DNA of 23,256 nt from Deltaproteobacteria bacterium. Its GTDB lineage: Bacteria; Desulfobacterota; Syntrophia; Syntrophales; UBA8958. The notes beneath the pieces were generated by a model, which worked only from the letters and a program-made list of their open reading frames with translations, had not been told where the DNA came from and made no database searches. A program made the position numbers and the translations under genes. Numbering within the stretch: the first letter of the stretch is position 1; each line of letters begins with the position of its first letter. The stretch lies in contig JAKPCH010000020.1 of NCBI GenBank assembly GCA_029553375.1, positions 1-23,256 of the forward strand, in the 5' to 3' direction. This document shows, in pieces, positions 8,079-11,839 of this stretch.

Positions 8079-9173
8079 ATGAAACAAATCAAGAACATCT
8101 TTGCCGGGACCTGGGGTATCGTCGCCGTGGGCGTCGTCATCGGGTGCCTGGCCCCGCTGTTGCAGCTGTGGGGCAACCCGGGGAACATGGGCGTCTGCGT
8201 CGCCTGCTTCGAGCGGGACATCGCCGGCGGCCTGGGTCTCCATAGGGCGGCGGTGGTCCAGTATATCCGCCCGGAGATCATCGGTTTCGTCCTGGGCTCC
8301 CTTCTGGCCGCCCTCCTCTTCCGTGAGTTCCGTCCCCGCGTCGGCTCGGCGACGATCGTCCGTTTCTTCCTGGGTGTCTTCGCCATGATCGGCGCCCTCG
8401 TCTTCCTCGGTTGCCCCTGGCGGGCGGCCCTGAGGCTGGCGGGGGGCGACGGGAACGCCATCCCGGGCCTCCTGGGCCTCGTCGCCGGGATCTGGATCGG
8501 GACCTTCTTCCTCCGCAACGGCTACAACCTGGGTCGCACCCAGAGGACCCACGGCGCCGCGGGCCTGATGATGCCCCTCTTCATGGCGGCGCTTTTGGTC
8601 CTCCTCCTCCTCTTCCCCCAGATCCCCGGCCAGGACAAGAACGAGCTCCTCTTCTACAGCGTCAAGGGACCGGGGTCCCAGCACGCCCCCCTCTTCGTCT
8701 CCCTCGCCGTGGGCCTCCTCATCGGCTTCGTCGCCCAGCGGAGCCGCTTCTGCACCATGGGGGCCATCCGCGACCTCCTCCTCTTCCGCCAGACCCATCT
8801 CCTGTCGGGTTTCCTCGCCCTCATCGTCACGGCCTTCGTCTTCAACTTCCTCGTGGGGCAGTTCAAACCGGGCTTCGAGGGCCAGCCCGTCGCCCACACC
8901 ATGCACCTGTGGAACTTCGCCGGCATGGCCCTCTCGGGCCTCGCCTACTGCCTGGCCGGAGGCTGCCCGGGGCGCCAGCTCTTCCTCGCCGGCGAGGGCG
9001 ACGGCGACGCCGCCGTCTTCGTCCTGGGGATGATCATCGGGGCCGCCTTCGGCCACAACTTCGGCCTGGCCAGCTCACCCGCCGGCCTCGGACCCTATGG
9101 GATACCCGCCGTCGTCGTCGGCCTCGTCTTCTGTCTCTTCGTCGGCTTTACCATGAGAGAAAAAACAGTCTAA
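8079..9173 (+). CDS. yedE: YedE/YeeE family membrane transporter (sulfur/selenium-compound transport)
   Basis: RBS AGGAGG then ATG 8079. Polytopic membrane protein with two internal repeats, each carrying the family cysteine motif (VACFERDI…; RSRFCTMGAIRD; LAGGCPGRQL). Confidence 0.85.
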   Translation: MKQIKNIFAGTWGIVAVGVVIGCLAPLLQLWGNPGNMGVCVACFERDIAGGLGLHRAAVVQYIRPEIIGFVLGSLLAALLFREFRPRVGSATIVRFFLGVFAMIGALVFLGCPWRAALRLAGGDGNAIPGLLGLVAGIWIGTFFLRNGYNLGRTQRTHGAAGLMMPLFMAALLVLLLLFPQIPGQDKNELLFYSVKGPGSQHAPLFVSLAVGLLIGFVAQRSRFCTMGAIRDLLLFRQTHLLSGFLALIVTAFVFNFLVGQFKPGFEGQPVAHTMHLWNFAGMALSGLAYCLAGGCPGRQLFLAGEGDGDAAVFVLGMIIGAAFGHNFGLASSPAGLGPYGIPAVVVGLVFCLFVGFTMREKTV

Positions 9174-9190
9174 CAATAGGAGGTATTGAG

Positions 9191-9409
9191 ATGGCAAAGA
9201 CCGTGGACGCCCGGGGGCTCTCGTGCCCCCAGCCCGTCATCATGACCCTGGACGCCATCAAGAAGGGGGGCGGGGAGGAGATCCTCGTCCTGGTGGACAA
9301 CGACACGGCCAAGGAAAACGTCGCCCGGGCCCTGAGGTCGAGGGGCTGGCAGGTGGTCTCCATCGAGGAGAAAGAGGGGACCTACGAGATCGCCGGTCGG
9401 CGGGGCTGA
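9191..9409 (+). CDS. yedF: TusA/YedF-like sulfurtransferase (CPxP motif)
   Basis: RBS GGAGG then ATG 9191. A 72-aa protein with [14 protein letters not shown]…, the TusA-fold active-site Cys-Pro-x-Pro. Starts 17 bp after the transporter, matching the known yedE-yedF pairing. Confidence 0.8.
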
Positions 9410-9427
9410 GGGTCTTCGGGGGGTATC

Positions 9428-9634
9428 ATGGTGACGGCGGACATGGAGATCCTGGAGATCATCCACCGTCGGCCCGAGACCCTGGCGGTCTTCCGGAGGC
9501 TCGAGGGGGAGACGGGGCGCTGCATCTGCTGCGAAGGTCTCTTCCTCACCCTTGCCGAGGCGGCCTGCGCCTTCGGGTTCGACCTGGAGGGGACCCTCGC
9601 GGACCTGAGGGCGGTGGAGGGCAATGAGAGGTAA
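9428..9634 (+). CDS. Small DUF1858-like redox-disulfide (CxxC) protein
   Basis: ATG 9428. [44 protein letters not shown] resembles the DUF1858 / hybrid-cluster-protein-associated redox disulfide domain pattern (…G.HC.GC…TLEEAA…G.DL..LL..L). Confidence 0.5.
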
Positions 9635-9668
9635 CGAGTCGAGATGAAAGGATTCCTCCTGAGATACC

Positions 9669-9706
9669 GGTGAGGACCCCACCCTGGACGTGGGAGGTTC
9701 TCACCG
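9669..9706 (+). other. Long imperfect RNA/DNA hairpin in the 310-bp GC-rich spacer upstream of selB
   Basis: CGGTGAG-ga-CCCCAC-cctggac-GTGGG-aggtt-CTCACCG. No U-tract follows, so it is not a canonical terminator. Confidence 0.35.
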
Positions 9707-9946
9707 ATGAAAAGGTCTCCGCCCGCCGACCCGCGGACCGCCTGAGGGCGAAAGGTCCCGTCGGGGGGGAGGGTCGGGGACGTCTTGGGGGCTTGCGGGT
9801 ACCCGGCCCACGGCCCGGCGGTCTTTTCGCCCGCCCCTCCGGCCGCCCGCCAAGGCGCGGGGTCACGGAGCCGGTAGGCGCCCCTGCGGCGGGCAGTGCG
9901 CCGCCGTGCTGCGGACCCGGCACCCATGACGGGAGGTGACCGGAGC

Positions 9947-11839
9947 GTGAAAAACATCATCCTGGGCACGGCGGGCCACATCGACCACGGCAAGACGGCC
10001 TTCATCAGGGCCCTCACGGGGATCGAGTGCGACCGCCTCGAGGAGGAAAAAAGAAGGGGCATCACCATCGTCCTGGGCTACGCCCAACTGACCCTGCCCT
10101 CGGGCGTCAAGGTGGGCATCGTGGACGTCCCCGGTCACGAGCGGTTCGTCAACCGCATGGTGGCCGGTGCCGCCGGCATCGACGTGGTGGCCCTCGTCAT
10201 CGCCGCCGACGAGGGGGTGAAACCCCAGACGGTGGAGCATCTCCACATCTGCCGGATCCTGGGCATCGAGAGGGGGATCGTCGTCCTCAACAAGCGCGAC
10301 CTCGTGGACGACGACCTCCTCTTCCTCCTCCGGGAGGAGGTGCGGGATCTCGTGCGGGGGACCTTCCTGGAGGACGCCCCCGTCGTCGCCGTCTCCTCCG
10401 TGACGGGGGAAGGCCTCCATGAATTCATCGCCGCCCTCGAGGAGGTCGCCGCCGCCGTCCGGGAGAAGCCTTTATCGAAGCCCTTCCGCATGCCCGTCGA
10501 CGCCGTCTTGACCATCACGGGCTTCGGGGCCGTCGTCCGGGGGACGGTCCTGTCGGGGTCCGTCGCCGTCGGCGAGGAGGTCGAGATCCTGCCCTCAGAC
10601 CTGCGTTCCCGCATCCGGGGTCTCCAGAACCACGGTCGGACCGTGGCGGAGGGCCGGGCGGGGGAGCGCCTGGCCATCAACCTCCCCGACGCGACGACGG
10701 AGGACCTCAAGCGGGGCATGGTCGTCGCCCGGCCGGGGATCTTCCGGGCCACCCGCCGGGTCCTCTGCCTCTTCGACTATCTCCCCTACAACAAGAAGCC
10801 CCTCAAGACGGTCAGCCACGGCCAGTTCCACTGCCTGGCGGCGAAGGTCAACGCCCGGATGGAGCTCGTGGGGGTCGAGAAGGTGCCGCCCGGGGGGAGG
10901 GCCCCGGCCGTCGTCTCCCTCGACCGGCCCCTGTCCTGCGCCCTGGGGGACCCCTTCGTCATCCGGGGCTACGGGATGTTCACCACCGTCGGCGGCGGGC
11001 GGATCCTCCACCCCCTCTTCCCGGAGGGAAAGGAGACGTCCCTTTCGCCGGAATACCTCCGGGTCCTCTCCTCCGGCACGACGGCGGAAAGGATCTCCCT
11101 CCTGGCGGCGGAGGCGGGCCGGGAGGGGCTGGAGAAAAAGGGCCTGGCGGGGATCCTCAACGAGAACCCCGCCGAAATCGATCAGGCCGTCGCCGCCCTT
11201 GGGGGGCGGGGGGAGGTCTACGAAGACGAGGGGGGTCTCCTCTTCCACGGCGAGGTCGTCGGCGCCGTGAGGCGTCTGGTGGGTGTGACCGTCGCCGACT
11301 ACCACCGCCGCAACTACCTCCGCGCAGGCGTAAACCGGGAGGAGCTCTCGGTGAGGGTCGCCGCCCCTCCCCGTCTCTTCCGCCTGGCCCTCGGTCTCCT
11401 CCTCGCCGAGGGGGAACTCCAGGCGGAGGGGGAGCTCATAAAGGCCAGGGGTTTCCACGTCACCGACGGGCCCGTCAACCTCCTCCTCCCCCAGGTGGAA
11501 GACCTCTACCGCCGCTACGGCCTGAGGCCCGAGGACCCGGACGCGTCGGCCTCGGCCCTGAAACTGGACCGCCGCCGCCTCCTGGAGGCCCTCAACCACC
11601 TCTGCCGCACGGGACGCCTGATCCGCCTGAACGCGGAGTACTACCTCCACCGGGAGCACCTCGAGGCGGCCAGGTCCGCTTTGAAAAACTTCTTCAAAAA
11701 CAACGAGATACTGACACCGAACGACGTCCGTGACCTCCTGGGCCTCACCCGGCGCCATATCATTCCCCTCCTCGAGTACCTCGACGGGGTCAAGTTCACC
11801 GCCCGCACCCCTGCGGGGCGGCGCCTCCTCAAGGGGTGA
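9947..11839 (+). CDS. selB: Selenocysteine-specific translation elongation factor SelB
   Basis: RBS GGGAGGTG then GTG 9947. GTPase motifs [17 protein letters not shown] and NKRDL. About 630 aa with C-terminal winged-helix extensions typical of bacterial SelB (mRNA/SECIS-binding region) rather than EF-Tu. Confidence 0.88.

Follow-up and report, generated by a model that had tools for sequence, protein, structure and literature searches.

A 23,256-nucleotide (nt) stretch of contig JAKPCH010000020.1 (GenBank assembly GCA_029553375.1), from a Deltaproteobacteria bacterium of the order Syntrophales, carries a selenium-utilisation locus that includes a small CxxC protein; we refer to the whole stretch as the window. 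Four genes follow one another on the forward strand: yedE, encoding a YedE/YeeE-family protein that is a putative selenium transporter (8079-9173; 364 amino acids (aa); TIGR04112 and PF04143), a short TusA-family gene labelled yedF (9191-9409; 72 aa; PF01206), a small DUF1858-like CxxC gene (9428-9634; 68 aa; recognised by family profiles and fold), and selB (9947-11839; 630 aa from a GTG at 9947; TIGR00475). The gaps between them are, in order, 17, 18 and 312 nt, the last of which (9635-9946) is GC-rich (73%; the G+C content of the window is 66.8%) and contains no recognised gene remnant. Near-identical contigs, one of them from assembly GCA_035381985.1, carry the label Syntrophales bacterium.

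The uptake of selenium and its specific delivery to selenophosphate synthetase (SelD), amid far more abundant sulfur, is an unresolved problem, and a 2024 study points out that a transporter dedicated to selenium is not known from any organism (PMC11097638). Comparative genomics (Lin et al. 2015, PMC5322559) has tied YedE, YedF and DUF3343 to SelD, leaving them as candidates in this field, and yedF and duf3343 rank with the genes found most frequently to overlap selD (bioRxiv 10.1101/2022.04.13.486033). A full-text literature search, covering part of the journals, returned no mention of a DUF1858-like member of yedE/yedF/selD clusters. The apparent novelty of the present locus is thus an unannotated CxxC component, predicted from sequence, in a known kind of selenium-utilisation cluster.

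Results

Transporter, TusA-type protein and SelB

The first-pass annotation, made from the sequence alone, had described a selenium-utilisation locus on a single strand, with short gaps except before selB, and curated hidden Markov models for YedE (TIGR04112) and SelB (TIGR00475) bear this out. YedE reaches 491.8 bits against TIGR04112 (seleno_YedE; cut-off 200), with profile positions 2-337 of 337 covered, and 60.1 bits against PF04143. It is 79-85% identical to the YedE proteins of nine other Syntrophales genomes, and its ATG is preceded by a strong Shine-Dalgarno sequence (AGGAGGA). In the window selB lies close by, and relatives carry selD in the cluster. The thiosulfate uptake system YeeE/YeeD (TsuA/TsuB) shares the transporter superfamily (PF04143) and a TusA-like cytoplasmic partner with a catalytic cysteine; however, the YedE of the window scores 492 bits on the selenium-type model compared with 26-39 bits on the TsuA models. 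In the YeeE/YeeD template, passage across the membrane is followed by capture on the TusA cysteine, and to our knowledge that system has no third CxxC component.

The neighbouring TusA-type protein scores 76.3 bits against PF01206 (gathering cut-off 28.6), has its sole cysteine, Cys12, in a CPxP-type motif (LSCPQP), and shares 48% identity with the TusA portion of one long YedF. The label yedF, given to it at the outset, has to be corrected, since the protein falls below both YedF equivalog models, TIGR03527 (57.6 compared with 110 bits, the N-terminal 65 of 194 positions being matched) and NF008242, the E. coli short form (31.5 compared with 79 bits). It misses these cut-offs because the C-terminal DsrE-like CGxC domain of long YedF is absent; the long YedF of 198 aa found in related loci scores 206-224 bits on TIGR03527. 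Single-domain TusA-family protein is the better description, and we retain yedF as a gene label only. The arrangement resembles the previously described YedE/YedF (FdhT/FdhU) and DUF3343 set (PMC5322559) in that a TIGR04112 YedE directly precedes a CPxP TusA-type protein with selenium genes close by. It differs in that YedF is here the 72-aa single-domain form and in that the DUF3343 gene, which follows in relatives as that paper describes, is absent from the window.

SelB scores 311.5 bits against TIGR00475 (cut-off 242.25), and its GTP_EFTU domain (PF00009), domain 2 (PF03144), beta-barrel (PF25461) and winged-helix domains 2 and 3 (PF09106 and PF09107) all exceed their cut-offs, so that, as judged from its predicted domains, the protein is intact. 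The most plausible start is the GTG at 9947, which has the best Shine-Dalgarno sequence (GGAGGTGA, 7 nt ahead); in-frame alternatives are the ATG at 9926 (gap 291 nt) and the GTG at 9896 (gap 261 nt), and public gene calls start selB at 9926 or 9947. A full-length SelB with winged-helix mRNA-binding domains is also a feature shared with canonical selenocysteine (Sec)-decoding loci (the selAB operon, selC, selD), but the selB of the window has no adjacent selA, selC or selD and instead follows transport and trafficking genes.

The small CxxC protein

The 68-aa protein carries the motif C32-I-C34-C35. A HMMER search of 1.84 billion representatives identified at least 152 clusters of related proteins (50% identity) at E<=1e-3, 31 of them at E<=1e-10, and a profile search of a 90%-identity database returned 1,489 clusters at E<=1e-5; wherever any source names the members, the name is "hypothetical protein", and NCBIfam has no dedicated model for the family. 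C32, L38 and F39 do not vary across an alignment of 45 diverse members, and T18, F22, G30 and C35 are nearly invariant, giving a conserved core of G-x-C-x-x-C-x-x-L-F. At E<=0.01, 28 of these 45 members match DUF1858 (best E 2.9e-9) and 41 match TIGR03980 (best E 9.4e-12).

Structure prediction leads to the same family. An AlphaFold2 model built on the family alignment is all-helical, with a predicted local distance difference test (pLDDT) score of 95.2, and its CxxC motif spans a short helix (33-36), with C32 just before it. The top PDB matches found by Foldseek are nuclear magnetic resonance structures of DUF1858 proteins, 2K5E (TM 0.80) and 2K53 (TM 0.65), together with 2FI0 (TM 0.66) and the YtfE N-terminal domain ScdA_N, 5FNN (TM 0.68). 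When the family profile was run against PDB sequences, it retrieved 2K53 (E=8e-6), 2K5E (E=9e-5) and ScdA 9R7J (E=0.003), and C32 and C35 align with the CxxC of 2K53 and 2K5E (CLGC and CIGC). Because family profiles, a confident model and fold matches agree, we take the small open reading frame (ORF) to be a genuine, divergent DUF1858 domain: on the strength of profiles and model, it is a divergent branch of the DUF1858 redox-disulfide domain and not an unrelated protein. The first-pass annotation had called it DUF1858-like, which stands at the level of the family and the fold, although the 68-aa protein taken alone remains below the curated cut-offs of both DUF1858 and TIGR03980.

Two known domain families thus serve as points of comparison. 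With DUF1858/TIGR03980, the protein shares the small helical fold and the aligned CxxC; it differs in that many of its relatives likewise fall below the curated cut-offs, in that the motif here is usually CxCC followed by xLF, and in that the known family is tied to hybrid-cluster proteins whereas this one is found in the context of selenium metabolism. The ScdA_N domain of YtfE/ScdA (RIC) proteins shares the fold and has conserved cysteines in the equivalent loop, but is attached there to a di-iron hemerythrin-like domain with iron and nitric oxide chemistry, whereas the small domain occurs either by itself or joined to SelD or to another enzyme.

DUF1858 is among the listed selenoprotein families, with the motif CxxU (reviews PMC9312934, PMC13188914). 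Because DUF1858 has this selenoprotein form, the position occupied by the CxxC motif is likely to be redox or chalcogen active, and we regard the motif as a putative reversible disulfide or chalcogen binder. Candidate CxxU members of the small family itself were rejected, as the shortened representatives stop at frameshifts or contig ends and not at the second cysteine; no Sec form was seen in this branch. The ORF of the window retains all invariant residues and shows one difference (G65S) from P0001, the public same-species representative, which occurs on eight contigs (P numbers denote protein representatives and L numbers loci). Because the invariant residues are kept and only G65S separates it from P0001, the gene is probably functional.

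Association with selenium genes across lineages

To place the small gene in its genomic setting, we scanned genomes and metagenomes for related loci with two tight sub-alignments of the family. A scan of one genome per species yielded nine loci, all from Syntrophales or related Deltaproteobacteria, and a metagenome set comprised the best 80 of 319 relatives that matched one sequence pattern. Dereplication at 90% identity of the small protein grouped 91 loci other than the window into 60 lineages.

All nine other Syntrophales species share the gene order yedE, short yedF, DUF3343 fusion, kinase and small gene. The DUF3343 protein of these loci has 186 aa with a PF11823 Se_S_carrier domain, its C-terminal half showing no similarity to the DsrE-like half of long YedF, and the kinase has 294 aa and is Carb_kinase/YjeF_C-like. 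Double-cubane-cluster reductases (NF040772) and/or their activase lie downstream in five of the nine, and selB was found within 8 kb in none of them. The metagenome contigs show the upstream genes as in Syntrophales, a downstream unit consisting of the small gene, selD (TIGR00476, 355-359 bits) and long yedF (TIGR03527), or both. Across the collection, the commonest order is yedE, short yedF, DUF3343 fusion, YjeF_C-like kinase and small gene, often continued by a Sec-encoding selD and long yedF.

At least one of YedE, YedF, long YedF, DUF3343, SelD and SelB is encoded within 5 kb of the small gene in 49 of the 60 lineages, and within the same distance the YjeF_C-like kinase is found in 33, SelD in 28 and YedE in 23. 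Seven of the 11 lineages that lack a selenium gene have only the kinase, TIM-barrel, phosphomutase-like or double-cubane genes of the cluster (six of the seven on short or one-sided contigs), and four of the 60 have no cluster gene at all (three of the four on short or one-sided contigs). Members of the small family are embedded in clusters of selenium genes, in genomes and metagenomes that are Desulfobacterota-like. The first-pass annotation had singled out a DUF1858-like gene inserted beside selB, and the conservation of that gene in homologous loci could be established, next to the yedE-yedF cluster in all nine of the other Syntrophales species and near selenium genes in most lineages. An unusual, conserved member of selenium clusters it is, but selB is not its recurrent partner; selD, long yedF, DUF3343 and the kinase are. 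Only the window lineage and L048 have selB near the small gene, and in L048 a tRNA-Sec gene (10505-10596) lies 41 nt upstream of selB. Another tRNA-Sec gene, in L050 (2458-2548), lies about 1.5 kb upstream of yedE.

This recurrence bears on another reading of the small protein, as a generic redox-disulfide (DUF1858) or iron-sulfur-related protein without any role specific to selenium, its adjacency to selenium genes being due to chance or hitch-hiking. Such a reading would fit the description of DUF1858/TIGR03980 as hybrid-cluster-associated, the place of ScdA_N in iron-sulfur repair proteins and the sub-threshold score of the protein in the window. It is nevertheless a highly improbable one, as adjacency to selenium genes recurs in those 49 lineages on contigs of between 44% and 63% GC, and is accompanied by fusions to SelD.

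Directly downstream of the small gene, 33 loci have selD, in every one of them the Sec form with an in-frame TGA at the catalytic position, in the motif G-[AS]-G-U-A-[SC]-K (for example L018 8230-9327 and L102 9304-10362); because of this in-frame Sec codon, ORF callers shorten the downstream selD to about 313-328 aa. In the cultured species Desulfosarcina cetonica, the small gene is followed after 48 nt by selD with its Sec codon and then by long yedF. In L023 (560-842) the small ORF and selD form one reading frame that is free of stop codons up to the Sec codon, and P0027 is a second in-frame fusion of the small domain to SelD, with a different sequence. A selenium-handling role for the small protein is supported because its context is conserved in many lineages and because it is fused to SelD.

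The small domain is also fused to a MerR-like regulator, in P0097, through a Cys-rich linker. This fusion raises the alternative of a sensor for selenium or redox state, or of a regulatory partner, whose CxxC would register selenium or thiol status and modulate the activity of SelD or the transcription of the cluster. Besides the MerR-like helix-turn-helix and Cys-rich segment of P0097, the helical nature of the domain, which has no catalytic features, speaks for such a role, as does the long conserved leader upstream of yedE described below, which suggests regulation. However, the regulator fusion is one among about 150 representatives, the standalone protein has no DNA-binding domain, and most members either stand alone just before selD, some with gaps of less than 50 nt, or are fused to enzymes. 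On balance we consider this alternative unlikely.

Other fusions join the small domain to a CbiR-like TIM barrel (L082 7983-9086 and P0087) and to an isopropylmalate/homocitrate-synthase-like enzyme (P0036). The small protein might accordingly serve other enzymes of the cluster, namely the YjeF_C-like kinase, the CbiR-like TIM barrel, the apgM-like phosphomutase or the double-cubane reductases, in a pathway that possibly leads to an unknown selenium metabolite or cofactor, and the copy in the window would then be an orphan left after gene loss. Consistent with this, the kinase gene is directly upstream in 33 of the 60 lineages and the TIM-barrel gene within 5 kb in nine, the TIM-barrel fusions occur in L082 and P0087, P0002, as the closest homologue, has the kinase on one side and a double-cubane reductase plus activase on the other, and double-cubane proteins co-occur almost exclusively with SelD (bioRxiv 10.1101/2022.07.06.499078). 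Yet the small gene, selD and long yedF occur in many loci (L018, L019, L028 and L102 among them) where up to 8 kb of sequence contains neither a kinase nor a TIM-barrel nor a double-cubane gene, and the small gene of the window is intact, with every invariant residue kept, although those partner genes are absent. We therefore regard this explanation, too, as improbable.

Two further arrangements were noted around these enzymes. In L009 (6836-7283) and P0023, the small ORF overlaps or is fused to the last 30-110 residues of a double-cubane reductase, with the activase gene next to it, as if the reductase gene had undergone an internal deletion. In many relatives, among them L048 (5387-8401), L057, L041, L046, L077 and L082 (7983-9086), three extra genes separate the small gene from selD, and encode a 283-aa protein with no NCBIfam match, the CbiR-like TIM barrel and the apgM-like phosphomutase-superfamily protein; together with the YjeF_C-like kinase, they look like an uncharacterised selenium-linked small-molecule pathway.

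A reduced variant of the cluster

Set against these relatives, the window is, by its predicted gene content, a reduced version of a larger cluster, with the selD, DUF3343 and kinase genes missing. The last two are absent from the same-species contigs as well, which by parsimony amounts to their loss in this lineage, and the gene downstream of the small gene is selB instead of selD or double-cubane genes. When the cluster proteins (DUF3343, kinase, selD, double-cubane reductase and others) were searched by tblastn against 7311-8078, 9635-9946 and 11840-12200, only chance-level matches were returned.

The first reading had also stated that the locus has no selA, selD or selenoprotein gene in cis and no tRNA-Sec or TTCAA anticodon-loop candidate in 9635-9946, and both statements withstood wider searches. 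Pfam scans of the remaining long ORFs of the window found no selA, selD or selenoenzyme family, and a TGA read-through scan of the window revealed no convincing split gene. ARAGORN predicted no tRNA in the whole window, Rfam gave nothing at gathering scores across the window and neither a tRNA-Sec nor a Sec insertion sequence (SECIS) match at E<=5 in 7250-10050, and neither TTCAA nor TTGAA occurs in 9635-9946. Alignment of the tRNA-Sec genes of L048 and L050 to the gaps of the window gave scores within the range of shuffled sequences. A tRNA-Sec in the 312-nt gap or elsewhere in the window was rejected on these negative results of ARAGORN, Rfam, motif search and alignment.

Non-coding sequences and the yedF stop codon

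The gap before selB is 99.4-99.7% identical among seven same-species contigs. It was considered as a possible structured RNA and rejected, its fold being non-significant (z=-1.51). A perfect 11-bp hairpin lies within it at 9668-9706 (CGGTGAGGACC ... GGTTCTCACCG), 34 nt past the stop of the small gene and without a U-tract.

Upstream of yedE, by about 310 nt, blastn and alignment revealed a conserved non-coding element on the forward strand (7728-7768), composed of a TAATAT (-10-like) box followed by a hairpin, GAGGRCC-CGGGY-GGTYCTC. This element of about 40 nt recurs upstream of yedE in the closest relatives (L012 4718-4760 and L009 3411-3455), at distances to yedE of 310-540 nt across the three Syntrophales lineages, and its hairpin pairing survives G-C to G-U changes among the window, L012 and L009. 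The leader that comes after it is GC-rich and about 300 nt long (fold z=-2.39 for 7738-8090), and neither element nor leader has an Rfam match. The element may be a promoter together with the start of a long GC-rich, possibly regulatory leader, a suggestion that is weak because only three lineages carry it. Within the same GC-rich DNA we noted an AT-rich island (7866-7905) that contains ATTGACTCC and a tandem 9-mer, AAATTCAAC AAATTCAAT, and that can be loosely aligned to TATTC...TTGAC patches located some 180-200 nt ahead of yedE in L010, L011, L013, L015 and L017; it is a candidate promoter or operator.

The yedF gene ends in a TGA (9407-9409) that is in the same frame as the ATG of the small gene, 18 nt further on. 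With both ORFs in one frame, so short a distance between them, TGA as the stop and selB adjacent, the codon could in principle be read as Sec, giving a TusA-U-DUF1858 fusion. We rejected Sec read-through because nothing SECIS-like follows the yedF TGA (z=-0.94). In addition, the TusA profile is matched to its end by residue 68 of the 72, the small ORF starts with its own ATG, two other genes separate yedF and the small gene in all relatives, and a shared frame arises by chance in one case out of three. Such a fusion is scarcely credible, and the shared frame is probably a coincidence.

Flanking genes

The remaining long ORFs of the window encode, by Pfam, a cyclopropane-fatty-acid synthase, a pyridoxal phosphate (PLP) decarboxylase, a band-7 protein and an ammonium transporter, and the contig upstream of the window carries an ion channel gene and hypothetical genes, with no selenium genes. 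The locus is flanked by genes for two proteins with domains that are less common in bacteria, at 3660-4478 by one for a protein with a C-type lectin domain (PF00059, 80 bits) and at 11954-13168 by one for a 404-aa protein (320-375 aa in public calls) with a C-terminal chagasin-type peptidase inhibitor I42 domain. On the reverse strand, 13140-17183 holds a putative short-chain acyl-CoA operon, unrelated to selenium, that includes an acyl-CoA dehydrogenase, an acetate/butyrate-type kinase and two phosphotransacylase (PTA_PTB) paralogues. A LysR gene at 17284-18189 was considered as LysR_Se (NF040786) and rejected, as it scores 107.4 bits against a cut-off of 250; its top match is AlsR-like (324 bits), and this regulator, likewise unrelated to selenium, is oriented divergently from the acyl-CoA operon.

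Discussion

We propose a model in which the small CxxC protein would hand selenium over between import and activation. By analogy with thiosulfate uptake by YeeE/TsuA, YedE would move a selenium species across the membrane, and the TusA-type YedF would capture the selenium on its cysteine, as YeeD/TusA does with sulfur. The CxxC of the small protein could then either hold the selenium as an intramolecular S-Se-S bridge or reduce the adduct bound to YedF. By either route, selenide would be passed to the Sec/Cys loop of SelD and kept apart from the sulfur pool; selenophosphate would feed Sec-tRNA synthesis, and SelB would bring the Sec-tRNA to the ribosome. We judge the case to be about evenly balanced as to whether the small protein acts as a dithiol selenium carrier or reductant between YedE/YedF and SelD, in what would be a reduced selenium-utilisation module. 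More tentatively, it may be a dedicated, previously unrecognised CxxC factor for selenium delivery from YedE/YedF to selenophosphate synthetase. The idea of an undescribed selenium trafficking or redox carrier, already voiced in the first-pass annotation, has gained from the membership in selenium clusters and the SelD fusions, while the carrier function itself is still inferred.

Support for a selenium-related role of the transporter comes from Methanococcus maripaludis, in which the yedE transcript rises 5.3 log2-fold under selenium starvation (PMC11097638). Several points weigh against the proposed role in delivery. Deletion of YedE in the same organism gave no clear phenotype, and selenium transport by YedE is unproven (PMC11097638). 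The small protein of the window, taken alone, scores 18.7 bits against DUF1858 (PF08984; cut-off 32.2) and 22.9 bits against TIGR03980 (cut-off 44.95), and the window lacks selD, whose product is the proposed acceptor. The metagenome loci, being ranked by similarity, are a biased sample. Finally, the small domain could serve something other than SelD because it is fused to a regulator and to other enzymes and has double-cubane neighbours.

The window itself represents a minimal natural set of yedE, yedF and the small gene, and thereby hints at which parts of the larger cluster are dispensable. With its gene in selenium clusters, often just ahead of selD and twice fused to it, the small protein makes a good candidate for the missing hand-over step in selenium metabolism. 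It is also a concrete target, with a mass of about 8 kDa, two presumably essential cysteines and likely partners that are obvious. Collectively, at least 152 clusters of proteins at 50% identity (1,489 at 90%) that are now called "hypothetical" can receive a selenium-related annotation. If the proposed role is true, this delivery factor would supply the missing step that separates selenium from sulfur on its way to SelD.

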